Assembly (NCBI GenBank): GCA_000513055.1
Contig: AZYB01000001.1
Span: 4,715-68,714 of the forward strand
Direction of reading: 5' to 3'
DNA from: an alpha proteobacterium SCGC AAA288-N07
GTDB taxonomy: Bacteria > Pseudomonadota > Alphaproteobacteria > Pelagibacterales > Pelagibacteraceae
DNA: 64,000 bases
Shown: in pieces, positions 1 through 58,316 of the stretch
Numbering within the stretch: the stretch's first letter is position 1
Layout of the letters: each line of letters opens with the position of its first letter
Program-made: the position numbers and the translations under genes
The notes under the pieces: generated by a model
What the model saw: only the letters and a program-made list of their open reading frames with translations
What the model was told of the DNA's origin: nothing
The model's database searches: none

Positions 1-1
1 T

Positions 2-106
2 GGTTGGGGTTTAAGTTGGCAAGGACAACAGTTTATACTAGGTTTATTAATTATACCAATGGTAGCTCTATACGCTAGATCGCCACACATTAGATCGCAA
101 ATATAA
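2..106 (+). CDS. 3' end of a gene entering from the left edge; hydrophobic C-terminus, product unknown (probably a membrane protein)
   Basis: Frame 2 is open from the window edge to TAA at 104-106 (GWGLSWQGQQFILGLLIIPMVALYARSPHIRSQI*). Convergent with the MBL gene. Too short to identify. Confidence 0.3.
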   Translation, partial: GWGLSWQGQQFILGLLIIPMVALYARSPHIRSQI

Positions 107-144
107 ATGGAAGCAACAATTAATTTTTCTAAAAAAAATAAAAT

Positions 145-999
145 TTAATCGTAGTAAAACATAGGTGCTTTTTTCCAATCAAGCCAGGAAACTGGATCAT
201 GACCCCAAACGACTTTTGCATCGTGTTCTTTTGCTACCCTTCTTAATTTTTTAACTGATTCTGCTGCATCAGAAGAAGAAGAGGCAAGTCCAGGTAGACA
301 TTTATCACACCAATGATCTCCTGTATAACAAGCATCTCCAGTAAATAACATATGACCAGTTTTTGGAAGATTAACCAGTACAGATTGGTGACCAGGAGTA
401 TGTCCTGGTGTAAATATTAATTTTATAACTCCATCACCATACACATCATAAAAATCAGTTTTTCTAGCCTGCAAGAATTTCCAACGAATATTTGGTTTAT
501 CAAAATCTGCTCTGATATAGGCCGGACCAGAAAACCAATCAGGATTAAATGCATAATCGTATTCTAATCTTTGTGTAATATGAGTAGCATTTGGAAAATG
601 TCCTATTGCACCTGAATGATCTAGATGAAGATGAGTTTGTATCACGTACTTGATATCTTCAGGTTTTGTATTTACAGTTTTTATCATATCTCTACACCAT
701 TCTGATACTTTCATTACTGGGTCATAGGCTTCGACCACAGAACCCCAATGTTTATGTTTGTCAATAGCTGCTTCTATTGGCATTCCACCATCAATAATAA
801 CGTCACCCTCAGGATGTTTAATTAAAAACCATGGCACAGGTATTTCATAAGGTTCATCGCTGTGATTCATTTTTATAAATTTTAATTTCGTTTTAATTGA
901 TCCTGTTTGAAACATATATAACCTAATACCTGAATTAAATTTTTTAGTTTGTTCAAAAATGTCTTTGTTTTTTTCTTGCATAAATATCTGCTCTACCAA
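145..999 (-). CDS. MBL-fold metallo-hydrolase, lactonase-like (AiiA/AttM-type family)
   Basis: 284-aa ORF with the HxHxDH zinc signature (THLHLDHSG), plus TPGHTPGH and later GD/HD ligand-like positions. Last gene of the co-directional cluster. Start overlaps the ADH stop by 7 nt; the Met codon at 979-981 is an alternative start. Confidence 0.7.
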   Translation of the reverse strand: MVEQIFMQEKNKDIFEQTKKFNSGIRLYMFQTGSIKTKLKFIKMNHSDEPYEIPVPWFLIKHPEGDVIIDGGMPIEAAIDKHKHWGSVVEAYDPVMKVSEWCRDMIKTVNTKPEDIKYVIQTHLHLDHSGAIGHFPNATHITQRLEYDYAFNPDWFSGPAYIRADFDKPNIRWKFLQARKTDFYDVYGDGVIKLIFTPGHTPGHQSVLVNLPKTGHMLFTGDACYTGDHWCDKCLPGLASSSSDAAESVKKLRRVAKEHDAKVVWGHDPVSWLDWKKAPMFYYD

Positions 1000-2162
1000 G
1001 CTGCCTGATAAATGTTAAAAGCATCTGCTTCCTTTACTTCTCTCGGATTATTAACTAATAGCCTTGTTTGTTTCATTGCATCACGCGCCATTTTTTCACA
1101 CGCATTTTTTGGTATATCAACTTCCCTTAATTTTTGTGGCAAACCTAATCTCTTTGATAATTCTTCCATCCTGTCAATAAATTCCGCACTGACCGCTTGG
1201 GCTCCTCTATCAGTATTTAAATCTGGAAAAACATAAGGTGCTAGTTCGGCATAATCTTTTGCTGCTTTTGCATCAATACTGTTGAATCTGAGCACATAAG
1301 GTAAAACCAAAGAATTTGAAAGTCCGTGTGAAACATGAAAAGTTCCTCCTAAAGGATATGCTAGTGCATGGACAGCTGCGACCGGAGAGTTTGCAAAAGT
1401 TTTTCCAGCAAGCATTGCTCCAATAAGCATGTTGCCTCTAGCCTCAACATTGGAACCATCTGAAACTGCCGTTTCTATTGAACCTCCAAGCAATTTAAGC
1501 GCCTCTATTGCTAACATTTTTGATATCGGGTTATTATTTTTACTGGTTGAAGCGTATCCCTCAATGGCATGTACCATTGCATCAATACCAGTTGATGCTG
1601 TAGTTCCTGAGGGCAAGCCTAATGTAAGATCCGGATCTAAAATTGCCAAATCTGGTAAAATTATTGAAGACGATACTCCTTTTTTTTCTTCTTCTCCTAT
1701 TGTAATAATTGCAACAGGTGAAACCTCAGAACCTGTTCCTGCTGTAGTGGGAACTAAAACTAGTGGCAAACGAGGTCCTTTAGCGTTTTCAACTCCCCAA
1801 GCCAATTCTAAATCTTCGTTAGAACCAAGTATTAGCGCTACAAGTTTAGCAACGTCCATGGATGATCCTCCACCAAACCCAATAACACCCGTTGCATTAA
1901 ATTTCTTTCCAATTTCTATTGCTGATAAAAGAGTCTTTCGAGATGGATCTGCTTCAACTTCGTCAAATATCTCAACTGAACTAATTTTATTAAGTTCTTC
2001 TATGGTAGGTTTAGTCAATCCTAAAGACATCAAACCTTTATCTGTTATAAAAAGTATACGAAGACCAAGTTTTTTGGAAATTTCTTTACAAGAATCTTTT
2101 GCTTGACCACTACCAAACCGAAGGCCAGGCGTTGTGTTAAAATTAAAAGAATTTAAAGTCAT
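993..2162 (-). CDS. iron-containing (family III) alcohol dehydrogenase
   Basis: 389 aa. Has the glycine-rich GFGGGSSMDVAK nucleotide site and the conserved His-rich metal region (DAMVHAIEGY, HALAYPLGG, HVSHG) typical of Fe-ADH enzymes such as FucO and 4-hydroxybutyrate dehydrogenase. Only 6 nt after the symporter gene. Confidence 0.8.
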   Translation of the reverse strand: MTLNSFNFNTTPGLRFGSGQAKDSCKEISKKLGLRILFITDKGLMSLGLTKPTIEELNKISSVEIFDEVEADPSRKTLLSAIEIGKKFNATGVIGFGGGSSMDVAKLVALILGSNEDLELAWGVENAKGPRLPLVLVPTTAGTGSEVSPVAIITIGEEEKKGVSSSIILPDLAILDPDLTLGLPSGTTASTGIDAMVHAIEGYASTSKNNNPISKMLAIEALKLLGGSIETAVSDGSNVEARGNMLIGAMLAGKTFANSPVAAVHALAYPLGGTFHVSHGLSNSLVLPYVLRFNSIDAKAAKDYAELAPYVFPDLNTDRGAQAVSAEFIDRMEELSKRLGLPQKLREVDIPKNACEKMARDAMKQTRLLVNNPREVKEADAFNIYQAAW

Positions 2163-2168
2163 AATTTT

Positions 2169-4235
2169 TTATACAAAATAAATATAGAATATCACCGAAA
2201 ATATTGCCATTCCTACAAGGATCAATATCCAACCATAGCCTGTTCCAACCTTGTCGATATAATTAACTTCTCCCTGAATTTCATCTGGCTTTTTATAAAG
2301 ATCATTTGCTAGAATTGGTTTGTTGGGCAAGGTTGATAAATCCATTTTGCTAGCTAGAAACCAAATTATTCCTATACCAAAAAGCCACCAAATAAGTTGA
2401 TATCCCCAAATAGAAGGTATTTTAAGAATCCAAGCTTCATAACCCGCTCCAGGCTCTCCAAAAAAATCATTCCCAATTATTTGTCCTGGTCCAACTGCAA
2501 AAAAAAGCCAGATCAAAACAATTACATAAGCAAAGGATCTTAGCTTTGTTCTGCTTGGATGAAGGCCCATATGATCATCTAAAAAATCATGAAACTTTTG
2601 TCTATGAGATCTATAAATATCAATTTTTGTAATATTAGAAAAAGCAGAAATAGAAAAACAAACAAACACATTAAATAACAATCCCCATACTCCAGAGTGT
2701 ATTGTTAGCGGCCATCTTCCCCAGGGCAACCTGTTACCAGTAATTTGTTGTCCTATAGTTTCTGTTAAAATAACTATAATTATTCCAATAATTAATCCAA
2801 ATGTTGCCGCTCCTTTTGTTATCCAAGGAAACCAAATTAGGCCTAGTAAAACAATTAAAAACTGGAATGCTATAGAAATTGCTATGCCACTAAAAATCAC
2901 CATTGCCGGTTTAGCAAATGTTGCTATATAAAGTGAGGCCAAAAATATTAACATCATTATTATACGAGCGACCGCACGTTCCTTTTCCCAACTTACGTTT
3001 TGATTAACATAAACTTTATATAAATCTCTTGTGACAATACTTCCGGATGTCATTAAAAGTGCGGCGGATGTTGACTGGAGAGCTGCAATCAATCCTACTC
3101 CTAACAAACCAGTTAACCAGACAGCATGCTTATCCATTAAGCTTATAATGTGATAAATTATTAGGGAGTGATCCTTATTAGAAACTTCTGGCAATAAAGT
3201 ATTTACAGAAAGACCGCTATTATTGATATCTGCATTGGCCCCTAGTAAACTTGCTCCAATTCCTTGATATGTTGTAAATATAAATAATAATAAACCTACA
3301 ATAACAGCAGATCCCCAAATCTGATAATAAGAAAAAGCTTTTGGATGTTTTACAGAATAACTCCACATAGAAAAAGAAGGCGAAAGAACTATTCCCATAA
3401 ATGAAATTGTAAAAGTAAAAATCATCATTGCTGTCCAAGGGCCACCCACTGCTTCATTCTTTCCTAGTCCTGCCACCCATTGAATGACACCTGGCAAAGC
3501 AAAATAGCTATTATAATCACCACCTCCATAGCCATTGGTGTTTCCCCAACTGCTTACTGATGTGCTGGCTATTTTTGCTAATGATTTACCAAAAGTTTCA
3601 ATATCTCCTACAAAAAAATAAACAATAATTCCCAAAAGAATTATAGTTAAAAAATAAAGCCAAGATTGAACCACCCCTATACTGACAATAGATTTAAATC
3701 CTCCCCTTGTTACATAAAACAAAACAATTAAAGAAATCACCCACATACTAAGTTCTCTAGAAACATATCCTGCTGTTAATGTGTTTACTAAATAGCCTGT
3801 AGCACCAAAAAAAACTGCTAATAGAGGTATTGCTATAAATAAAGTTACCAATACTGAAATAACACGAATTGTATCACTTTTATAATAATCATAATACATT
3901 TCGCCCGGCGTAATATATCCAAACTTTCTACTTAACATCCATTGTCTTTTAAAAAAAAATACACTTCCTAAAGGAACAGTTATGGCAATAAAAGCTGTAC
4001 CGACATACTGAAAACCATCGTGAAAAACAAGACTAGTTTGAGATATTACTGTTAGTCCGGCAAATGTGGCGGTAGTGGCTGCGAAAAAAAAAACCCATGA
4101 AGAAATATTTTTGTTTGCTAAATAATATCTTTCTGGATTTTCAGAATTATATCTTGATCCCCTTACGCCCCAAAAAAAACAATAAACAGCGTACAACAAT
4201 AAAAAAATAAATAACCAAAGAGTTTTTTCGGACAT
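2169..4235 (-). CDS. sodium:solute symporter (SSS) family transporter with a C-terminal membrane extension
   Basis: 688 aa and strongly hydrophobic throughout. The first ~520 aa resemble SSS-family proteins (e.g. TRGGFKSIVSIGVVQS). A further ~160 aa contain 3-4 additional hydrophobic helices. Confidence 0.7.
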   Translation of the reverse strand: MSEKTLWLFIFLLLYAVYCFFWGVRGSRYNSENPERYYLANKNISSWVFFFAATTATFAGLTVISQTSLVFHDGFQYVGTAFIAITVPLGSVFFFKRQWMLSRKFGYITPGEMYYDYYKSDTIRVISVLVTLFIAIPLLAVFFGATGYLVNTLTAGYVSRELSMWVISLIVLFYVTRGGFKSIVSIGVVQSWLYFLTIILLGIIVYFFVGDIETFGKSLAKIASTSVSSWGNTNGYGGGDYNSYFALPGVIQWVAGLGKNEAVGGPWTAMMIFTFTISFMGIVLSPSFSMWSYSVKHPKAFSYYQIWGSAVIVGLLLFIFTTYQGIGASLLGANADINNSGLSVNTLLPEVSNKDHSLIIYHIISLMDKHAVWLTGLLGVGLIAALQSTSAALLMTSGSIVTRDLYKVYVNQNVSWEKERAVARIIMMLIFLASLYIATFAKPAMVIFSGIAISIAFQFLIVLLGLIWFPWITKGAATFGLIIGIIIVILTETIGQQITGNRLPWGRWPLTIHSGVWGLLFNVFVCFSISAFSNITKIDIYRSHRQKFHDFLDDHMGLHPSRTKLRSFAYVIVLIWLFFAVGPGQIIGNDFFGEPGAGYEAWILKIPSIWGYQLIWWLFGIGIIWFLASKMDLSTLPNKPILANDLYKKPDEIQGEVNYIDKVGTGYGWILILVGMAIFSVIFYIYFV

Positions 4236-4251
4236 TTAATCCTTTTTAAAT

Positions 4252-4620
4252 TTAGGTACAACGCCTTGGTGCTGATTCACCTCGCTCTTTTTTAATTCTT
4301 TCTGCTTCTTTCTGTGCCGTTTCAATTGAAGGAAAAACTTTATCTTCGTACAAAATAAATGGTTTAGCTCTGTCAGCATTAAGTTGGGCTACGCACCATT
4401 CTTTACCAGGTTTAGTACACATTACCATGTATGCCCCTGGTATCGGACCGTATTTTCTATTATTTAAAACAAAAAGACATTCTGCAAGATCATTAAGTTT
4501 GTCTTTATCCAAATTGTTTAAAGCAATTTTTTCTAAATCATTTATGGAAGTGACGTTATCAGAACCAAGTATTCCTTTACCGTCGGTACCAGTTGGTCTA
4601 CTTATTTCTACTTTTGACAT
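4252..4620 (-). CDS. small protein, possible second (paralogous) dimethylformamidase small-subunit-like protein
   Basis: 122 aa. Its ATG overlaps the stop of the large-subunit gene (TAATG at 4618-4622). The C-terminal half (PIPGAYMVMCTKPGKEW...KPFILYEDKVFPSIETAQKEAERI) aligns loosely by eye with the C-terminal half of the 138-aa protein at 7000-7416. Confidence 0.45.
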   Translation of the reverse strand: MSKVEISRPTGTDGKGILGSDNVTSINDLEKIALNNLDKDKLNDLAECLFVLNNRKYGPIPGAYMVMCTKPGKEWCVAQLNADRAKPFILYEDKVFPSIETAQKEAERIKKERGESAPRRCT

Positions 4621-6977
4621 TATGGTAATGGCCCTTCCTTTAAAAATCCTCTAATTGCGTTTTCTAAAATTTTAGATACGTTATTGTTGTAATTATTGTA
4701 AGATAAACTTCCACACCATGATAATGATCCAGGTGCGAACAAAGCTCCATCTTTTGGTGTTTTATAGTAAATCATATCAGCTCTAACCATTGGGTTTTCA
4801 GTACCTCCTCCATAAAAACCTCTCACTGAAAAATGAATTTCTTCATTAACTTGTAGCATTAAGTTTGTATGATTTTCAGATCTTGCTAATAAATAAGCGT
4901 TGTGTGGTGTTCCAAAATCTAAATCATATCTATCTAATTCAAGACCAGCTGCTCCACCTCCTACTAGACCAAAATCTCCTATTATTTCGTCTTCTCCCAC
5001 GCCTTCAAAAATCCACGAACATTCTGGTCTCTTACTATCTGGTTCTCTTTTATAATATGAAGAAACATCAAATCCATAAGCAGTAAATGTTAAACCACAT
5101 ACTTTTGAAGGTATTCTTCCACGCGCACGCCACATACCACCATATTTTCCATCAAAAGCATTATTGTATTCCCCGGGATTTGCTGTCCAAGCTCTTGTTC
5201 CGGCTTCACCTTTTCTTACCTCAATAATATTTGTATTGTCCGGGTGATATTCACTAATCCAATAAAAACCATCTGAACCTAAATATATCCATCTCCCACC
5301 GTTTAATTGATAGGACTCATATGCTGCTAACATTTTTTCAGAACTATATTCTGGATGTGAACCAGTTAGTACACATTGGTAACGATTCAACAAATCAACA
5401 CCTTCTATATGTAAATCTTCATCAGTAACAACATCAAAATCAAAATTCTTTTCCTCTAACCAATCAGTTAAATGTAGGTCTGCATTTAATTGCCATAAAG
5501 ATGGAGATAACCAGTGTCTATATTTTGGTCTCATATTAAGTATAGGTCTTAATCTTGAAGAAATAGCTACACCAGTTCCATCAGAGTGTTTTGAATAAGT
5601 TGATAGTCCATATTCTCTGTGTTCATTAAGATACAAATCTGAAGCTGCTAAAACTGGAACCTTTCCAGCAAGTAATTGAGCAACTACTGAATTTGTTCCT
5701 AGGTTGTCGTTTGAATAAGCCATATAACTATTTGAAGGAAGTACGAATAAAAGTTTTGAAGTTGTTTTACCTTTTGGTGGTTTTATTACAAAAGGAACAA
5801 AATCTTCGGTCTCAGGAGAATCTTCTCCATTAATTCTTAACCTTGCAGCATAAACTCCACTTTTAATAAGGTCTGGAATATCAAAAGTAAAATCAACTTC
5901 CCATCTTGCATCATCTATGTCGTCATCGTGAAAATGAATTGCTCCATATTCTTCGGGTTTGTGGTGATATACCATCTCATCTGCAGTCCAATTATATCCT
6001 GTCATTCCTCTATTAGGTAAATTAATAATAAAACCATTTAGGTGATTTGAAGTTGTGTCAATTATAAAAGTAGAAGCTATATTTTTAGTAATATTTGCGT
6101 GAAAATCCCAAGCGCCAATAACTTCAGATCTTAACTCTGATGTGCAACCACCATAACCTCTTGCTAAAGATTCGATCTCAGCTTTTGATAGAGCTTTTCT
6201 ACTTAGTCTTGGTCTATCAATCTTTCCATTGTAAGTTAAAGTTTGTTCTGGTAATTCGACTGGTACAGTAGCTTCTTTGTAATGTCCTCCTTGAATATGT
6301 CTTCCTGTACGATCTACAAGAGTACATGCGGCCATTAAAAAAGGCGTCATGTTTGCTCGTGGTTTTAAATTGCTCGTTGTTTCAACAACAGAAGTAGTTT
6401 CATCAGCCGGGTGCAACAAAGACATTCCCAATCCACCATTTGTGGGTGTAACGCAAGGTTCTTGATAAAGTTTTACTTTTCCTGTTTCAGCATCATAGCT
6501 TACTGCAATAAGGTACCAGACTTTGGCCATTAATTTTTTTTCACTAGACAAATTTGTAACTTGTCCAGCTCCATCACCTATCATTACTGAAAGACAAGCT
6601 TTTTCATCAATAAAAAGGCCATAACCACTTTTTTCAGTTTCATTCCATTTTGTTAAAAGACCTTGCTTTCCTTTATCCGGAGTTGTTGGAAATATATATG
6701 CCTGCAAGGTAAAGCTTTTTGCATTTAATCTTTCGTCATGAGGGATAACAACATAAGATCCTCCATGGATTCTTTGGTTTCTTCCTTTATAGGTTTTATT
6801 ACATTGTGCTCCAGTTTCCTCTTCTTTGTATCCTGGTCCTTCCGGGTTTGTATCTCCATGAATTAATCTTATAATTTGAACATCATAATCTTCATTTTTT
6901 TCAGAATTAATATAAAACTTAACTTTTTCTCCAGGAAACGCAGAGTATTTGTCGCTGTAGCCAGTAATTCTTAACAT
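4620..6977 (-). CDS. N,N-dimethylformamidase large (beta) subunit-like amidohydrolase
   Basis: 785 aa. Full-length resemblance to my recollection of DmfA2: N-terminal RLIHGDTNPEGPGYKEE, then WDFHANI, EEYGAIHFHDDDIDDARWE, LTGSHPEYSS, GLVGGGAAGLELDRYD and C-terminal SLSWCGSLSYNNYNNNVS. Confidence 0.8.
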   Translation of the reverse strand: MLRITGYSDKYSAFPGEKVKFYINSEKNEDYDVQIIRLIHGDTNPEGPGYKEEETGAQCNKTYKGRNQRIHGGSYVVIPHDERLNAKSFTLQAYIFPTTPDKGKQGLLTKWNETEKSGYGLFIDEKACLSVMIGDGAGQVTNLSSEKKLMAKVWYLIAVSYDAETGKVKLYQEPCVTPTNGGLGMSLLHPADETTSVVETTSNLKPRANMTPFLMAACTLVDRTGRHIQGGHYKEATVPVELPEQTLTYNGKIDRPRLSRKALSKAEIESLARGYGGCTSELRSEVIGAWDFHANITKNIASTFIIDTTSNHLNGFIINLPNRGMTGYNWTADEMVYHHKPEEYGAIHFHDDDIDDARWEVDFTFDIPDLIKSGVYAARLRINGEDSPETEDFVPFVIKPPKGKTTSKLLFVLPSNSYMAYSNDNLGTNSVVAQLLAGKVPVLAASDLYLNEHREYGLSTYSKHSDGTGVAISSRLRPILNMRPKYRHWLSPSLWQLNADLHLTDWLEEKNFDFDVVTDEDLHIEGVDLLNRYQCVLTGSHPEYSSEKMLAAYESYQLNGGRWIYLGSDGFYWISEYHPDNTNIIEVRKGEAGTRAWTANPGEYNNAFDGKYGGMWRARGRIPSKVCGLTFTAYGFDVSSYYKREPDSKRPECSWIFEGVGEDEIIGDFGLVGGGAAGLELDRYDLDFGTPHNAYLLARSENHTNLMLQVNEEIHFSVRGFYGGGTENPMVRADMIYYKTPKDGALFAPGSLSWCGSLSYNNYNNNVSKILENAIRGFLKEGPLP

Positions 6978-6999
6978 ATTAACCTTTCAATAATAGTAA

Positions 7000-7416
7000 T
7001 CATTCTCCGTACTTTTCTAAAAGTTCCAAAATTCTTTTTAAAAAAATTGCGTGCTCACAGGCTTCTTCTGAAGAGAAAGGATCGTTTAAAATTTTTACAG
7101 GTTGACCTCTTACTCCACTGCAAACTCCAATCCTGTAATCTTTAAAATCTTTTTTGCATACAGTTATGTATTTTCCAGCCATTGGTTGTCTTCTTAATTT
7201 GTCTAAAACAGTTCTTAATTCTTTGCTATGTTCAACTCCTGGCTGTCCTTTATGAAGTGCAGGAGCTTTACCAACTGGGCATGCTCTATGTTCTTCAATT
7301 AATCGATTTCTGGTTTTTTCATCTCTTAATAAAGGCAAGACATATTTGCGAGTTATAAAATCATCCGTACTTGTATGTCCTTGATTTAATTGTACTCCCG
7401 TTTTATCTTTAGTCAT
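7000..7416 (-). CDS. N,N-dimethylformamidase small (alpha) subunit-like protein
   Basis: 138 aa, located 22 nt upstream of the large-subunit gene as in dmfA1-dmfA2 operons. The C-terminal region QPMAGKYITVCKKDFKDYRIGV...FSSEEACEHAIFLKRI matches the pattern I recall for DmfA1 (QP..G.Y.I....W..YRI...F.tEEEA.HA.FLrRI). Confidence 0.6.
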   Translation of the reverse strand: MTKDKTGVQLNQGHTSTDDFITRKYVLPLLRDEKTRNRLIEEHRACPVGKAPALHKGQPGVEHSKELRTVLDKLRRQPMAGKYITVCKKDFKDYRIGVCSGVRGQPVKILNDPFSSEEACEHAIFLKRILELLEKYGE

Positions 7417-7431
7417 TATTACTCTCCAAAA

Positions 7432-8286
7432 TTACTTGTTGGTCCTTTCTTTAATAATTTTTAACGCTTCCATTAAATAAACACGAAATACTTCATGATT
7501 TTCGCTCATTGGAAAATGTCCTATATCAGTCATTTCTATATAAACTCCTCCTTTTATTTGTCGGGCTGTATTTTCAGTTGCTTCTGGAGGTGTTAGATAA
7601 TCATATGTTCCTGTTAACATAACAACAGGACACTTATGTCCATCAATATTTTTTAATTCTTTTCTTAGATCATGATCAACTGAGTAAAAATATAAATCTC
7701 CCTTAAATGCTTCTGAGCCTTGAGTATAATAGTGCCAAGTCAACCATCTGTCTTTTTCTGGTGATTGTGGTGCCATAAGGTCCCATGTTCCACTTGCACA
7801 AACTTGAGCCGCATTTGCATGAGGATGACGCCACCAATCCAAATAAAAACCAGGAGCATAATCTGCTGCCTCTACTGGTATGACTGCTCTAAATTTATTT
7901 GGATAACGCAAGGCTAATTGTAAAGCTACATTTCCACCAAAAGAAGAACCCATAAAAATAGGTTTTTGCAAACCTAAGGCTTCACATAATTTTAGAATAA
8001 AATTACAATAATGTTCAGCTGTTAATTTGTATTCTTCCTTCCACCATTCTTTGTTATGTGGGGGATCTGACTTTCCATGTCTTGGTAAATCGTAAGCAAT
8101 AACATTGTAGTCTTTAGTAATTTCTTTATCTTCAAGTAAACCTCTCCATTGATGATTGTGACATCCAGCTGTATGTTGGCAAATTAAAGGTATTCCTTTT
8201 CCATTTTGTAAATAGAAAACCTTATATTCACAATCATCAACTTCAATCGTAACATAGCGGCCTACGACTTCGTGATGCACTACCAT
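7432..8286 (-). CDS. alpha/beta-fold hydrolase
   Basis: 284 aa. Nucleophile elbow GSSFGG (GxSxG), a candidate acid in LTGTYDY and a candidate His in DIGHFP. Size and layout are typical of the alpha/beta hydrolase fold. Confidence 0.75.
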   Translation of the reverse strand: MVVHHEVVGRYVTIEVDDCEYKVFYLQNGKGIPLICQHTAGCHNHQWRGLLEDKEITKDYNVIAYDLPRHGKSDPPHNKEWWKEEYKLTAEHYCNFILKLCEALGLQKPIFMGSSFGGNVALQLALRYPNKFRAVIPVEAADYAPGFYLDWWRHPHANAAQVCASGTWDLMAPQSPEKDRWLTWHYYTQGSEAFKGDLYFYSVDHDLRKELKNIDGHKCPVVMLTGTYDYLTPPEATENTARQIKGGVYIEMTDIGHFPMSENHEVFRVYLMEALKIIKERTNK

Positions 8287-8317
8287 TATAATGCTCCTTT
8301 TAATTCAAAATAATTCA

Positions 8318-8707
8318 TTAAACTGGTACTCCTATTTTTCTTAGTAATTCAAACTGAACAGTAAAATTTCTTAAATTTTTCATTAAAATCAAATGATTGC
8401 CCTCAATTTTTAAATCTCTTAAAAAACTTGCAGCCCATATTCCGTGATACATTGGTTTTGGAACGGGTTGCCCAAATTCTTTCCAAGTTTTTGCAGAAGC
8501 TCTAAGAGCAAAATCATAAGGATCCAAAGGTGATGGTTTCGTATTTATGTTTTTAACTTTGCCATCATGCATTTCGATAATTGCTTTTGCATTTTCCATA
8601 TCGAACATAAAGGAACAAGTATAATATTTTGCCATAGCCTTAATAGTTTCATCGCTATTAGTAACCTCTTCATATTTCTTTGCCCAATTATCTAACTCAC
8701 TACTCAT
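8318..8707 (-). CDS. SCP2 (sterol/lipid carrier)-like small protein
   Basis: 129 aa. Overall pattern resembles SCP-2 sterol-transfer domains (alpha-rich N-terminus, FDM...II.M.DGKV, ...LKIEGN..L..KL). Called by eye only. Confidence 0.4.
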   Translation of the reverse strand: MSSELDNWAKKYEEVTNSDETIKAMAKYYTCSFMFDMENAKAIIEMHDGKVKNINTKPSPLDPYDFALRASAKTWKEFGQPVPKPMYHGIWAASFLRDLKIEGNHLILMKNLRNFTVQFELLRKIGVPV

Positions 8708-8722
8708 AATATTTTACTTTCG

Positions 8723-8987
8723 TTACTTAGAACTTTTGCTTCCTTTAGTTGGATCTTTATCAAAATTCATATGATAATCTTTTTTAGGATTTTCATAATC
8801 GCCAAGAATATTTCTGATATTGCTTATCTCTCCAGGATGCATGCCAATTTCTTTAAGCAAATGATCTAGAAATGGTTGGTGTGCTCTATAACGTAATGCA
8901 GAACTAACTACGCTATCTGCTAAATTGCCACTTCTTCCAGATCCACCACCTTGAGTGCCTGCAGTTACTGCTTCACCACTGCCCCCC
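8723..8987 (-). pseudogene. out-of-frame C-terminal continuation of the flotillin gene
   Basis: The listed 126-aa ORF (8723-9103) overlaps the flotillin 3' end in another frame. From the G6 run onward it encodes a Gly-rich linker followed by NLADSVVSSALRYRAHQPFLDHLLKEIGM. This looks like the usual YqiK/flotillin C-terminus rather than an independent protein. Confidence 0.6.
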
Positions 8988-10706
8988 TGAACCAGAAGTT
9001 CCACTAAAGCCAGGTAAACCATTAACATCAACAATTTTAATATCTCCAATGTTCGCCATCGGTTTAACACTTTCTCTAATGATTGCTTCAATTTTTTCAG
9101 CAAGTTTTAATCTTAAAGCACTTCTTCTGCTTGCATCACTTCTCAAGTTCTCAGCAGCATTTAATGCTTCCTTACCAGCAGCATCTATCTCATATCTTAG
9201 TTTTGCTGCCAAAGTTGCAAATCTATCCTGTTCGGCTTTTGAAGCAGCAGTGATGACATCAACTTTCTTAATACCTTGGGCTTTTTCAACGTACATAGCT
9301 GAGTTCGCTTTTTCTTCAGCTTCTACTGCTCTAGCTCTAGTAACCTGTTCTTCAGCTTTAGATTTTAAAACTTGTTTAGATTTATTTATAACTTCAAGAT
9401 TTTTTTGATGTTCTTCTATACTTAATCTTTTCGTTTTATCTATATCAAGAAGTCTTGTTTCTCTTTCTGACTCAATTCTGTGAGCATCTAGATTTCTTTG
9501 TTGAGCAATTTTAGCATTTTTAATATCTTGTTCAGAAATTATTTGTGCTTCCTCAGCATCTTTTTGTCTTTCAGACTGTTCTTTAATTATAGTAGCTTTC
9601 TCTTGTGCCCGTTTCACATCAACGAGTCTTTGTTTTTCTAAACGTGCATACTCACTTTCTTTATCTAATTTTAAAATCTTAACTTCTGTCTCAAGATCTT
9701 TTTGCCTAATTTCATACGCCGAATTTTTCTCTAATTCGTTTTGTTCTTTTCGACGTTTTTCAATTTCTTCGATCAATCTTGTTTCTGTTAGTTTTTTTTC
9801 AACTTCAATAACCTGATTTTGCGAAATTTTTGCAACTTCAATTTGTTCTTGACTGCTTATTTCAGCTTCCTCAGCTTCACGTTCTTTTTCTGCTCTTTGT
9901 TTAACAGTTTCAGTTCTTTCTTTGGCTTTTTGAATGGCAATTTCTCTTTCTTGTTTGTATCTAGAAAATTCTTCGTTCTTCTTAATTTCTAGTTCTTTTT
10001 GAATCGTTTCTAAATTTTTACTTTCAATTGAAACTCTTGTATCTTGTGAAATAGCGTTTCTTTTTTTCTTTCTAGACTCAATTTGTTCAGTTAATTGTGT
10101 TAAACCTTGAGAATCAAAAGTATTTGCAGGATTAAACTGTTCGATTGGAGTTTGATCCAAAGATATAATAGAAACTGTTTCTAGTGCTAAACCTGTATGT
10201 CCTATCGATGCATCTGCAATTTTTGTAACATCTTTTACAAACTGTCCTCTATTTTCTTGTATTTCATCCAGTGTCATTTTTGCAGCAACTTCCCCTAGCG
10301 CATCTGCAAAACGACCTTGTACTACCTCTCTTAAATGTTCAGGATCAAGAGTTCTGTTACCTAAAGTTTGTGCAGCAGTTGCTACGGCTTTTTGTTCAGG
10401 TGGAACTTTTGTAAAAAATTCCGTAACTAGTTCTGCTCTCATTCGGTCTTTTGTTATCAAAGATTTGTCTCCACTTCTTTTTATAGTTATGCTCAGAGTA
10501 CGCATTCCCACTTGAGTTATGTTGTGAATTATAGGTAAGACAAAGGCTCCTCCCGATATAACTACTTTCTCACCAAGCATTCCTGTACGTACAAATGAAA
10601 CTTCCTTAGATGATCTTCTGTATAACCAATGCAATAGATAAACTATAATCGCTATTGCAAGTGCTAGTAGAATTATTGCTGCTATTATATCTGCTCCTCT
10701 AGTCAT
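8973..10706 (-). CDS. flotillin / SPFH (band 7) family protein (YqiK-like), apparently truncated by a frameshift
   Basis: 577 aa. N-terminal membrane anchor (IIAAIILLALAIAIIVYLL), SPFH core (VRTGMLGEKVVISGGAFVLPIIH...), and a long E/K/Q/A-rich coiled-coil region. Ends just after a G6 homopolymer (8982-8987). Starts 18 nt after the rhodopsin stop. Confidence 0.8.
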   Translation of the reverse strand: MTRGADIIAAIILLALAIAIIVYLLHWLYRRSSKEVSFVRTGMLGEKVVISGGAFVLPIIHNITQVGMRTLSITIKRSGDKSLITKDRMRAELVTEFFTKVPPEQKAVATAAQTLGNRTLDPEHLREVVQGRFADALGEVAAKMTLDEIQENRGQFVKDVTKIADASIGHTGLALETVSIISLDQTPIEQFNPANTFDSQGLTQLTEQIESRKKKRNAISQDTRVSIESKNLETIQKELEIKKNEEFSRYKQEREIAIQKAKERTETVKQRAEKEREAEEAEISSQEQIEVAKISQNQVIEVEKKLTETRLIEEIEKRRKEQNELEKNSAYEIRQKDLETEVKILKLDKESEYARLEKQRLVDVKRAQEKATIIKEQSERQKDAEEAQIISEQDIKNAKIAQQRNLDAHRIESERETRLLDIDKTKRLSIEEHQKNLEVINKSKQVLKSKAEEQVTRARAVEAEEKANSAMYVEKAQGIKKVDVITAASKAEQDRFATLAAKLRYEIDAAGKEALNAAENLRSDASRRSALRLKLAEKIEAIIRESVKPMANIGDIKIVDVNGLPGFSGTSGSGGQW

Positions 10707-10724
10707 AAATTATTTCTCCCAAAT

Positions 10725-11423
10725 TTAAGTTGCTTTCTTTGTATCGTTTAAAGCAGCGCCGTAGATTATCATTCCAAAAATGATTTTGTTTAATATGTCT
10801 GCTAAGTTGTAAATAATGTTTAAACTGTTAATGTTTGCGCCTCCGGCCAAGTGCTCAATAAAATATCCTATATGGTAAATTGAGAAACCTATGGTTATAA
10901 TCAATCTATTTGCAAAGAATGCCATTTGAACACTTTCATTGTTACAAGAAGCATTTTGTCTTCCTGCATCTCCCATGTAAAGTTCGCCAATAATATAAAG
11001 CCAACCAACAATACCTACTAAAAAGCCAAGAGTAACACTCATATATCCATAAGCTCCTAATAGCTGGGCTATAACCCAGACTAATGTTCCCACAAGCAGT
11101 CGCCAGAACATTCCTCTCTTAACGTTAGTAACCGACTTAAGCATTACGTAAAAAGTTAAAATCGTGAGCGGGAAAGTTAATATCCAATCAATATATCTTA
11201 AAGCTGTAGGTGCCTGACCATTCAAAACCCATAAATTTTTTGCATAGAGATAATGTATAGAGGACATTAGAGCTATTACCCCCACAAGATTCATTGCCGT
11301 TCCCCATCTGTTCGACAGACGGCCTCTCTCTAAGAAGAAAAATATCGCCGCTCCTATCATTGCAACCGAAATTAACCAAAAAGATCCTCCGACGACGTCC
11401 TGTGGCAGCAATAATTTGTTCAT
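10725..11423 (-). CDS. microbial (type 1) rhodopsin, divergent proteorhodopsin paralogue with a D-T-T motif
   Basis: 232 aa with 7 hydrophobic helices. Aligns along its whole length with green proteorhodopsin: SFWL, FFFLER, IHYLY, RYIDWILTFPL, NLADILNKIIFG with the Schiff-base Lys at residue 213. The donor position is Thr. No signal peptide. AAGGA SD-like sequence upstream of the ATG. Confidence 0.85.
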   Translation of the reverse strand: MNKLLLPQDVVGGSFWLISVAMIGAAIFFFLERGRLSNRWGTAMNLVGVIALMSSIHYLYAKNLWVLNGQAPTALRYIDWILTFPLTILTFYVMLKSVTNVKRGMFWRLLVGTLVWVIAQLLGAYGYMSVTLGFLVGIVGWLYIIGELYMGDAGRQNASCNNESVQMAFFANRLIITIGFSIYHIGYFIEHLAGGANINSLNIIYNLADILNKIIFGMIIYGAALNDTKKAT

Positions 11424-11690
11424 GATTTCCTTTTCAGACTTTTTTTTTATTTTTTTCTATTAAAATTGTATTTTTTATACAAATCAATAAAATAAAATTT
11501 GATTTAAGTAAAAAATATTTCAAAATCTTTTAAAATACCTCTAAAAAAAATTTATTTTTTTAACAATTCAATTAACACTAGAATTTTTTTAAAATTGTTT
11601 TTTTTGGTTTAAGTTAAGCAACGGATGGGTTGTTTATAATTTTAAAATTCCACTTCGTTAAATATTTATTATCTATATTATTATGCTTGA

Positions 11691-12329
11691 ATGCTTTCTA
11701 AAGTCATAACAATAGCGCAACAAAAAGGAGGTACGGGAAAAACAACTTTGGCAGTGCATTTGGCTCTGGCTTTAATAAAATACCATAATCTAAAAATTGT
11801 TATTATTGATACCGATCCACAAGGAAGTCTTGGTAAGTGGTATATTATTCGTTCAGAAAAAAAACTTTCAAACGACAATTTAACTTTTAAAACTGCCAGT
11901 TTATGGGGGGCTCAGTATGAGTCAAAAGCATTAAAAAAAGATCATGATATTGTAATTATAGATACTCCACCGAAAATTGAATCTGATGCACGTCCATCTA
12001 TTGAAGCTGCAGATTTAGTTTTAATACCAATGACACCTTCTCATGTTGATTTTTGGGCTACTGAAGCAATTGTAGAGATTGCAAAAAAAGCAAATAAAAA
12101 AATATTAATACAAATCAACAGAGCTAATCAACGATCTAAACTTATAAGTAAGACAAATGAATATATTAAAAGTATAAATCTTTCACCAACCCAAACAATA
12201 GTTGGACATCGACAAATTTTTGCATCATCTATGGGGGAAGGTAAAACTGCAGTGGAAAAACAAAAAAAAGGTAAAGCTGTAGAAGAAATAAAAAAGCTAA
12301 CAGAACAAATTCTATTAGAATTAAAATAA
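11691..12329 (+). CDS. ParA/MinD-family P-loop ATPase (small, orphan ParA-like)
   Basis: 212 aa. Deviant Walker A QKGGTGKTT near the N-terminus, plus IIDTDPQGS and IIDTPP motifs. No parB-like gene follows. Confidence 0.8.
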   Translation: MLSKVITIAQQKGGTGKTTLAVHLALALIKYHNLKIVIIDTDPQGSLGKWYIIRSEKKLSNDNLTFKTASLWGAQYESKALKKDHDIVIIDTPPKIESDARPSIEAADLVLIPMTPSHVDFWATEAIVEIAKKANKKILIQINRANQRSKLISKTNEYIKSINLSPTQTIVGHRQIFASSMGEGKTAVEKQKKGKAVEEIKKLTEQILLELK

Positions 12330-12415
12330 TTTTATCATTTAAAATTTATTGGCGTAATTTAAATCTATGTTGCAATTTTTATATCCTTCTATAATGGTAT
12401 TTATATAGCTTTTAG

Positions 12416-12489
12416 GAGGTTTCTTAATAAAATATTTATTCATCATATAAATGAGGTTTCTTAATAAAATATTTATTCATCATATAAAA
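12416..12489. repeat. 37-bp tandem duplication (2 copies, 36/37 identical)
   Basis: Copy 1 at 12416-12452 is gaggtttcttaataaaatatttattcatcatataaat. Copy 2 at 12453-12489 is identical except for the last base. Covers the 3' end of the GGCT-like ORF. Confidence 0.95.
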
Positions 12490-56927: not shown

Positions 56928-58316
56928 CTATTGCTGTTTTTTTAATTTATTGGCTGACCATATTCCTTTTCTTATACCTCCGTCAGGATATGATAGTGAT
57001 CCTTGGCCGTGCCTTTTACCATTTTTCCATTCACCAATATAAACTCTTCCATTAGAATACTCCATTGTTCCATGTCCGTTCAATTTGTCATTTAACCATC
57101 CCCCTTCATATTTTATAAATAAACCTCTTTTTTCTTTTTTGTTTTCTGATGAAGCTGCGGTAAAATTCATAGTACCTAGTCCATCACGTTTATTTTCTTC
57201 CCATTCTCCAACATAACCCCCTCCATCTTCATAAGTAAAAGATGCTTGTCCATTTCTTATAATTAGTTCACCATTTTTCCAGATGCCTTCTTCTGCTGAT
57301 CCGTCAGCTTTAGTCCATGATCCTTGCCCGTTTCTCTCACCATATTTGTATAATCCAAAATATTTACCACCGTCTTTTAAGAAAATACTTACTTCACCAT
57401 CAAGCAAACCGTTAACCCATCTTCCGCTATTTTTTCTTCCATCAGGAAATATAAATGTTCCTTGTCCATTATATACCCCTTGCGCGAATTCACCTTCATA
57501 TTTTCCCCCAAGATGATTGGTGAAAGTTCCTGCTCCGTGAAATGAGTCTGCTTTAAACTCACCAATATATAGATCTCCATTAGCAAATTTGTACACTCCA
57601 TATCCTTCTGATTTACCTCTTTTAAATCCTCCTTCGTAAATCGCCCCATCATTATACGTATAGGTTCCTTGCCCTGAAAATTTTCCACCTTGAAATTCAC
57701 CAACGTATTTGGATCCATCTTTACCAATCAAAGTTCCTTGACAATTTCTCCATTTAGCAAACATCTTCATTCCTGAAAAGGAAAATGTTTTAACTTCCAT
57801 AGGACTTCCTTCACATTCAATAAATGAACTTTCTATTTGCGTTGGTTCTTTCTTAGCTGACTTAGCTTCCTTTTTTTTCTTAGCTTTATTTTTCTTAGCT
57901 TTATTTTTACCTATTTCAATACGTTCAATTAATTTCCCCTTTTCCCAGATACCGTGATCTATGTCTCCATTAGAAAATGTGTAAGTTCCTAAACCACTTC
58001 GTTTACCTTTTAAAAACTCTCCAACATATTTATCTCCAGCAAATTCACCATCTCCCCATGTGAAAGTTCCTTGTCCTGAATATTTTCCACCTTGAAATTC
58101 ACCAGCATATTTGGATCCATCTTTATGAATCAAAGCACCTTGACAATCTCTCCATTTAGCTAGCATCTTCATTTTAGTTGCAACTCCACCGCCTGTTAAA
58201 GAGAATTTTTTAACTTCATAAGGGCTTCCTTTGCACTCTGGCAATGAACTTGCTGCCTGTGCTATATTGAAAAACAATGAACTTAGAAATAAAGTAACTA
58301 AAAATTTTTTCATCAA
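56928..58316 (-). CDS. secreted MORN-repeat protein with an internal module duplication
   Basis: 462 aa. Signal peptide ending AQA-AS. More than ten YxGxxxxGkxxGxG MORN-type repeats. A Lys-rich linker (KNKAKKNKAKKKKEAKSAKKE) separates two homologous modules. Confidence 0.75.
   Translation of the reverse strand: MMKKFLVTLFLSSLFFNIAQAASSLPECKGSPYEVKKFSLTGGGVATKMKMLAKWRDCQGALIHKDGSKYAGEFQGGKYSGQGTFTWGDGEFAGDKYVGEFLKGKRSGLGTYTFSNGDIDHGIWEKGKLIERIEIGKNKAKKNKAKKKKEAKSAKKEPTQIESSFIECEGSPMEVKTFSFSGMKMFAKWRNCQGTLIGKDGSKYVGEFQGGKFSGQGTYTYNDGAIYEGGFKRGKSEGYGVYKFANGDLYIGEFKADSFHGAGTFTNHLGGKYEGEFAQGVYNGQGTFIFPDGRKNSGRWVNGLLDGEVSIFLKDGGKYFGLYKYGERNGQGSWTKADGSAEEGIWKNGELIIRNGQASFTYEDGGGYVGEWEENKRDGLGTMNFTAASSENKKEKRGLFIKYEGGWLNDKLNGHGTMEYSNGRVYIGEWKNGKRHGQGSLSYPDGGIRKGIWSANKLKKQQ

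Follow-up and report, generated by a model that had tools for sequence, protein, structure and literature searches.

The window considered here is the whole 64,000-nucleotide stretch of contig AZYB01000001.1 from the Pelagibacteraceae bacterium SCGC AAA288-N07, with a G+C content of 30%, and the subject is a rhodopsin gene within it together with the flotillin gene that follows. The rhodopsin gene lies on the minus strand at 10725..11423 and is an intact open reading frame (ORF) of 232 amino acids (aa), beginning with ATG and with an AGGA Shine-Dalgarno-like motif 5' of the start. Pfam Bac_rhodopsin matches residues 14-223 of the product (E 6.8e-26), and a scan of the protein against NCBIfam matches no family. 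Its stop codon is followed by a spacer of 18 nucleotides (nt; 10707..10724, minus strand) and then by the start of a co-oriented gene with SPFH/Band_7 and Flot domains, the flotillin gene (8723..10706, minus strand). The rhodopsin gene is very probably an ordinary member of the published SAR11 family of flotillin-associated rhodopsins (FArhodopsins, or FARs), of the Pelagibacterales "DTT-T" type. Among the functions that can be proposed for its product, that of a retinal-free partner of flotillin fits best.

In a phmmer search of the Protein Data Bank (PDB), the protein matches the entries called "flotillin-associated rhodopsin", 9r21 (E 6e-88) and 9r23 (5e-87), ahead of the proteorhodopsins (PRs; 2e-57 to 1e-53). 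Identity is 59% to PsFAR, the protein in 9r21, versus 38-42% to PRs. The AlphaFold2 model, computed from a 57-sequence alignment, has the seven-helix proteorhodopsin fold, with a predicted local distance difference test (pLDDT) score of 91 and a predicted template modeling (pTM) score of 0.87, and its top PDB matches in Foldseek are again 9r21 and 9r23, both with a template modeling (TM) score of 0.95. A sequence-only reading that preceded this analysis had proposed comparison with curated rhodopsins; by both phmmer and Foldseek, the closest is PsFAR 9r21 and not a pumping PR. The FAR grouping rests on search scores, identity and Foldseek. A scan of one genome per GTDB species yields 59 related loci, about 48 of which are single-amplified genomes (SAGs) and metagenome-assembled genomes (MAGs) of Pelagibacteraceae/Pelagibacterales whose protein is 90-97% identical to that of the window. 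They include AG-390-L03, the reference genome of the FArhodopsin paper (95% aa identity). A look-up of the exact protein sequence among public assemblies gives no match, and the taxonomic placement by sequence comes from these identities together with DNA that is 76-84% identical across 11 kb. A flotillin ORF begins 3-67 nt after the rhodopsin in all 59 loci, and the three motif groups described for the family (DTT, DTL/M, and DNI) are recovered among the homologues.

The family has been approached from several directions. At Station ALOHA, the DTT-T rhodopsins of SAR11 outnumber every other rhodopsin type at 200-1000 m (Olson et al., 2018; PMC5864233). They are missing the signal peptide, and in E. 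coli they give neither pigmentation nor a light-driven pH change; grafting a PR N-terminus onto them does not rescue activity, and converting functional DTE pumps to DTT-T abolishes pumping (Olson et al., 2018). The FArhodopsin name was given in 2023 (Haro-Moreno et al., 2023; PMC10308929) to paralogues in genomes of SAR11, HIMB59, and Pseudothioglobus that also have a normal DTE proteorhodopsin. The FAR gene is always followed by a flotillin gene and co-transcribed with it, the pair heading a cluster of ~26 kb, and co-transcription was seen in metatranscriptome reads for AG-390-L03 (Haro-Moreno et al., 2023). The motif is DTT plus T at the tuning site in Pelagibacterales, DTL/M in Pseudothioglobus, and DNI in HIMB59, and the Pelagibacterales FARs have a 23-aa N-terminal deletion. 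In AlphaFold models of FARs, four highly conserved residues would intersect retinal. The clusters are tied to photic/twilight depths, with an enrichment at the deep chlorophyll maximum (DCM) and lower photic depths (Haro-Moreno et al., 2023). PsFAR's cryo-EM structure then showed a colourless, retinal-free pentamer with an intact rhodopsin fold (Kovalev et al., 2025; bioRxiv 10.1101/2025.04.29.651185). In PsFAR, the polyene site is taken up by H84 and the ionone-ring site by E120, and only the double mutant H84V/E120G (PsFAR-DM) binds retinal, giving a slow, almost bistable photocycle and no pumping. When retinal enters PsFAR-DM, Y183 and P184 shift by ~1.9 Å and M116 reorients, which keeps it clear of the C9 methyl of retinal. 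In PsFAR, the free lysine is held in part by S54, and position 84 is His or Phe in all FARs (Kovalev et al., 2025).

Residues were mapped with a MAFFT alignment of the window protein, PsFAR, Med12 blue proteorhodopsin (BPR), green proteorhodopsin (GPR), and bacteriorhodopsin (BR), cross-checked against phmmer alignments to solved structures; the GPR and BR sequences used reproduce all of the published residue numbers. Both methods equate H57, R76, D79, T83, T87, and T90 with GPR H75, R94, D97, T101, L105, and E108, while in helices F and G, F180, Y183, H184, D209, and K213 fall on W197, Y200, P201, D227, and K231. This is exactly the alignment to GPR that the sequence-only reading had made by hand. 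The residues and codons it quoted are all correct (H57, R76, D79 at 11187-11189, T83, T87, T90 at 11154-11156, D209, and K213 at 10785-10787), as are the Phe and His it saw in helix F (GFSIYHIGY), which are F180 and H184. Its description of a proteorhodopsin paralogue with a D-T-T motif, a remodelled pocket and no donor carboxylate is borne out by T90 and the pocket residues. It had also found no signal peptide, and this agrees with an N-terminus 18 residues shorter than that of the GPR precursor in the MAFFT alignment, and with a helix A that runs from about residue 10 in the AlphaFold model, so that there is no leader.

The counterion and lysine core is kept. It comprises R76, D79 (codon 11187-11189; the helix-C counterion position), D209, and the Schiff-base lysine K213 (10785..10787), plus S54 and H57, all codons here and below being on the minus strand; S54, D79, and D209, which hydrogen-bond the free lysine in PsFAR, are therefore all present. 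D79, T83, and T90, with T87, make up the DTT-T motif. The codons of T87 to T90 span 11154..11165, T87 being the spectral-tuning position and T90 (11154-11156) replacing the cytoplasmic proton-donor Glu. F84 (11172..11174) is at the position whose role was established in PsFAR (Kovalev et al., 2025), and Q120 (11064..11066) aligns with PsFAR E120, which takes up the beta-ionone ring site and has Gly as its counterpart in PRs. W116 (11076..11078) is Met in PsFAR, M134 in GPR, and M118 in BR. From F180 to H184 (10872..10886), helix F reads F-S-I-Y-H where PRs have W-A-I-Y-P, a signature specific to the SAR11 type. Compared with pumping PRs, the window protein is thus larger at four pocket positions (V to F84, M to W116, G to Q120, and P to H184) and smaller at one (W to F180), and W116 and H184 lie at just the two additional positions where PsFAR-DM has to rearrange before retinal fits. 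From textbook residue volumes, we estimate the extra pocket bulk at ~2x that sufficient to block PsFAR; this is an approximation and not a computed value.

Set against a DTE pump, the protein retains the Schiff-base Lys, the Asp97/Asp227 pair, Arg94, and His75 (K213, D79, D209, R76, and H57), and it has T90 in place of a proton-donor carboxylate at the GPR E108 site and F84, Q120, F180, and H184, plus W116 for M134, in place of an open pocket. It has both the aromatic residue at 84 and the S54 that Kovalev et al. describe for FARs. Judged from these aligned positions, the retinal pocket is probably occluded. The four residues that clash with retinal in the models of Haro-Moreno et al. are named only in a figure of that paper; we infer that they correspond to F84, W116, Q120, and H184.

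The same substitutions recur throughout the SAR11 type. Among 113 full-length homologues, 13 are SAR11-type and 100 are not. T90, W116, and F180 are fixed in the SAR11 type (13/13) and all but missing from the remaining 100, F84 and Q120 are also fixed across the 13, and S181 occurs in 12/13. Every full-length SAR11-type sequence has H184 and no other homologue does, and F180 is likewise absent from the ~100 other FAR-clade homologues. T87 is present in most full-length SAR11-type homologues, two having Q87. Since T90, F180, and H184 occur in essentially all full-length SAR11-type homologues, the pocket substitutions are not due to chance. A separate observation concerns codon 222 (10758-10760), which is Gly in the window FAR versus Ser in 12/13 SAR11-type sequences and Arg/Lys in other FARs. 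This private substitution, G222, lies close to where helix G ends on the cytoplasmic side, a part of the protein for which possible contact with flotillin has been suggested in the literature.

The flotillin partner presents a complication. Its gene is split by a +1 frameshift into ORFs of 577 and 126 aa. The first (8973..10706, minus strand) carries Pfam Band_7 and Flot positions 2-85, and the second overlaps it and carries Flot positions 77-124. The break lies in a G6 run (C6 on the plus strand) at 8982..8987, which carries a 1-nt insertion. Deleting one G restores a 660-aa flotillin that is 93% identical, end to end, to that of another of the related loci (L021), and flotillin is intact in all complete relatives, at 643-693 aa. 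Either the homopolymer was misassembled or the gene was inactivated very recently. Since the spacer is only 18 nt long and a consensus promoter/terminator scan around the operon finds no terminator-like site between the two genes, FAR and flotillin are probably co-transcribed.

Taken with the probably occluded pocket, the published experiments on close relatives suggest that the window protein would bind no retinal and therefore would have no photocycle and pump no protons. The sequence-only reading had already held that it is not an efficient pump, in agreement with the lack of any pH change when relatives were expressed (Olson et al., 2018), and had rightly seen retinal binding as the key question. 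The protein would then be a membrane protein that works independently of light and is probably a pentamer; one mRNA would yield it and flotillin in stoichiometric amounts, and it would act as a client or organiser of a flotillin membrane microdomain. In dim or deep water, the transporters and enzymes encoded in the FAR cluster, or else the bona fide proteorhodopsin of the cell, could come under the influence of such a microdomain. Several points weigh against a retinal-free partner of flotillin. The retinal-free evidence comes from relatives and not from the window protein itself, and the only solved FAR is the gammaproteobacterial PsFAR, 59% identical and with H84/E120 rather than F84/Q120. 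The negative results in E. coli could reflect misfolding or the absence of flotillin, as their authors note (Olson et al., 2018). K213, D79, D209, R76, and H57 are all conserved, and a protein that merely serves as a scaffold would have no obvious need of them. The literature contains no demonstration of physical binding between FAR and flotillin, and the PsFAR structure is without any obvious flotillin-binding adaptation (Kovalev et al., 2025). Finally, if the break in flotillin is real, FAR is kept here without an intact partner.

Other explanations must be set beside this one, beginning with the possibility that the gene has no function at all. It is under strong purifying selection. Its dN/dS versus SAR11 relatives is 0.008-0.06 (~0.02), with dS near saturation, and 90%-identity clusters of near-identical proteins contain hundreds to thousands of metagenomic members. 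A decaying pseudogene is ruled out by the dN/dS of ~0.02. A decaying, non-functional duplicate of proteorhodopsin might seem to be what the loss of the donor Glu and of pocket residues, the inactivity of relatives in E. coli, and the frameshifted flotillin next door describe, but there is practically no chance of this, given such a dN/dS with synonymous sites near saturation, an ORF intact in dozens of streamlined genomes, the thousands of members in the 90%-identity clusters, and the abundant transcription of the gene. The sequence-only reading favored a sensory or regulatory rhodopsin that binds retinal, has a slow photocycle because the donor is lost, and passes a light signal to a partner. 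The retention of K213, D79, D209, R76, and H57 speaks for it, as do the photic/twilight depths of FAR clusters and the constant presence of PR in the same genomes (Haro-Moreno et al., 2023), and the slow, near-bistable and non-pumping photocycle of PsFAR H84V/E120G indicates that the scaffold still supports photochemistry. However, that photocycle appears only in the engineered protein, wild-type PsFAR being without retinal in its spectra and in the cryo-EM map. The SAR11 DTT-T proteins are colourless and inactive in E. coli (Olson et al., 2018), four bulky residues (F84, W116, Q120, and H184) occupy retinal-contact positions, and there is no transducer gene in the cluster, Pfam finding no transducer or signalling gene among the FAR neighbours in the window, in line with the published cluster (Haro-Moreno et al., 2023). 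A light sensor is thus very unlikely. The reading that proposed it had overlooked the co-oriented flotillin 18 nt downstream, residues F84, W116, and Q120, and the published status of the family.

A role connected with light is also contained in the suggestion by Haro-Moreno et al. that a retinal-free opsin forms mixed oligomers with the cell's proteorhodopsin in flotillin rafts, and thereby tunes the performance or spectrum of the pump in dim light. FAR and PR share a fold and are both pentamers, FAR genomes always carry a PR, and the DCM and lower photic depths are where the cluster is enriched. Hetero-oligomers, however, have not been observed, and interprotomer contacts differ between PsFAR and PsPR. 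DTT-T genes peak at 200-1000 m at ALOHA, where light is negligible (Olson et al., 2018), and there is no PR within the 64-kb window, in which tblastn finds no second (DTE) rhodopsin. We consider mixed oligomers unlikely. Alternatively, the protein could sense or conduct something other than light, with a polar pocket (H57, D79, T83, T87, T90, Q120, H184, D209, and K213) that binds a small ligand, another chromophore, or an ion. This would account for a counterion and lysine core strictly conserved without retinal and for SAR11-specific changes that are polar (P to H184, G to Q120, L to T87, and E to T90), and it is compatible with the water-filled cavities of PsFAR, the idea having been raised in both papers (Haro-Moreno et al., 2023; Kovalev et al., 2025). 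Yet no ligand density is reported in PsFAR, whose cavities are small and fragmented, and no partner signalling gene is present, which leaves the idea quite improbable. In its more specific form, the SAR11-type residues T87, T90, W116, Q120, F180, S181, and H184, with H57, D79, D209, and K213, would form a polar His-containing site for a non-retinal ligand or ion, or a light-independent proton/pH sensor coupled to flotillin microdomains; we give this a small chance only. A retinal-free partner of flotillin accordingly fits the locus best.

Some of the relatives deserve mention in their own right. FAR has not been found in cultured genomes (Haro-Moreno et al., 2023). The complete 1.37-Mb chromosome of "Candidatus Pelagibacter sp. 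Uisw_094" (NZ_CP159823.1, 350978-371667) has the FAR-flotillin pair, with 93% identity; if Uisw_094 is a culture, the system could become experimentally tractable. Five loci (L053-L057, FAR at ~10001-10690) have FAR and flotillin pairs that are more distant, their FAR being 62-63% identical to the window's and the flotillin lying ~42-67 nt downstream. They come from MAGs labelled Rhizobiaceae, Poriferihabitaceae, Hyphomicrobiales, Chromatiales, and Rhodobiaceae, and one copy lies on a chromosome of 5.25 Mb, so the pair also occurs outside streamlined genomes. A 231-aa relative (P0096; locus L060, 161-856), 62% identical, combines the FAR-type S54 with PR-like V84, L87, E90, G120, W180, and P184, and no flotillin gene follows it within its 3-kb contig. 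Judging by these residues, it is possibly a sister of the FAR clade that can bind retinal. Another FAR, 93% identical to the SAR11 type, is on a 1.8-kb contig (CAZXST010000166.1) of a MAG labelled Flavobacteriaceae, and is probably a binning contaminant rather than a horizontal transfer.

The surroundings of the pair are those of the published FAR cluster. On its 5' side is an AT-rich spacer of 267 nt (11424..11690), beyond which is a divergent gene for a ParA/MinD-like P-loop ATPase (11691..12329, plus strand). The spacer presumably holds the FAR promoter and corresponds to the "long conserved spacer" bordering the FAR cluster (Haro-Moreno et al., 2023); a promoter consensus scan around the operon gives fewer matches than the shuffle mean. 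Downstream, co-oriented genes of the cluster occupy 145..8707 (minus strand), collinear with AG-390-L03, and the cluster runs off the start of the window. They encode a 129-aa unknown protein, an alpha/beta hydrolase, a 138-aa unknown, an N,N-dimethylformamidase-like protein, a 122-aa unknown, a Na+/solute symporter, an Fe-alcohol dehydrogenase, and a protein with a metallo-beta-lactamase fold. The three unknowns (8318-8707, 7000-7416, and 4252-4620, all on the minus strand) have no Pfam match at E<=1e-3. This Pfam content, with FAR and flotillin at the cluster head, agrees with the published cluster (Haro-Moreno et al., 2023). A sterol-carrier-like protein is also mentioned for the cluster in the literature, and could not be identified in the window.

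From 709 to 12330, the window is collinear with related loci, at 76-84% nucleotide identity over 11 kb. The ParA-like gene, which adjoins FAR in 47 related loci, is the last shared gene, and synteny with Pelagibacteraceae loci stops just past it (12330-12436 and rightwards). The right-hand 52 kb of the window is core housekeeping (rpsD, cysS, leuA, glmS, nrdAB, and others). Neither DNA nor protein comparison finds these right-flank genes in the 10-kb flanks of related loci, where the relatives carry unrelated genes (L002, AG-390-L03 and Uisw_094, positions 1-9100 of each locus). The FAR cluster thus behaves in an island-like way, with neighbours that vary from genome to genome. No crt or blh gene is found in a Pfam sweep of 63 ORFs spread across the window, a sample rather than every ORF, and an Rfam scan of the window finds only two tRNAs. 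Among the core metabolic genes, a 462-aa protein (56928-58316, minus strand) consists mostly of MORN repeats (Pfam E 1.8e-53), a domain unusual for a streamlined alphaproteobacterium.

Much of this picture was available beforehand, as papers of 2018 and 2023 had reported the DTT-T motif, the missing leader, the doubtful pocket, and the abundance in deep SAR11, and the structure of a FAR followed in 2025. What is added here is a residue map showing that the SAR11 type fills its pocket unlike PsFAR (F84, W116, Q120, and H184, with F180), as well as a FAR locus with an interrupted flotillin reading frame. The interest of the family lies in a strongly conserved, well-expressed and apparently chromophore-less opsin that is always paired with the only flotillin of abundant, streamlined marine bacteria. 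Should the polar-site proposal be true, the most abundant bacteria of the ocean would be using the microbial-rhodopsin fold for a chemistry new to it.

Comparison with known systems places the window protein step by step. It shares a rhodopsin fold without chromophore with the retinal-less opsins, namely Rh-noK and the haloarchaeal lysine-less opsins cited by both Haro-Moreno et al. (PMC10308929) and Kovalev et al. These lack the Schiff-base lysine, whereas the window protein keeps K213 and would exclude retinal sterically. The PR pumps (GPR, 7b03/2l6x; BPR, 4jq6/4kly; PsPR, 9r22) have the same fold at 38-42% identity, and the equivalents of H75, R94, D97, T101, Y200, D227, and K231 are all found in the window protein. 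It differs from them in lacking the E108 donor and the signal peptide and in replacing V102, M134, G138, W197, and P201 by F, W, Q, F, and H, and its published close relatives, unlike these pumps, neither bind retinal nor pump. PsFAR of Pseudothioglobus (9r21; mutant 9r23) is much nearer, with 59% identity (58% in the Foldseek alignment) and a TM of 0.95 to the model. The two share S54, R76, D79, T83, Y183, D209, and K213, an aromatic side chain at position 84, a long polar one at position 120, the absence of the donor carboxylate, and the flotillin neighbour. Where the window has F84, Q120, T87, T90, W116, F180, and H184, PsFAR has H84, E120, Q87, M90, M116, W180, and P184, and the window keeps the PR-type H57 where PsFAR has F57. 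Nearest of all are the Pelagibacterales FArhodopsins such as that of SAG AG-390-L03. Their loci differ from the window in that its flotillin is frameshifted and in the flank past the ParA-like gene in the loci examined. The rhodopsin itself differs from theirs by a few substitutions (G222 versus S, for example) and in nothing of substance; it agrees with them in the DTT motif, in T at the tuning site, in lacking a signal peptide, in the flotillin gene a few nucleotides downstream, and in the gene order of the cluster.

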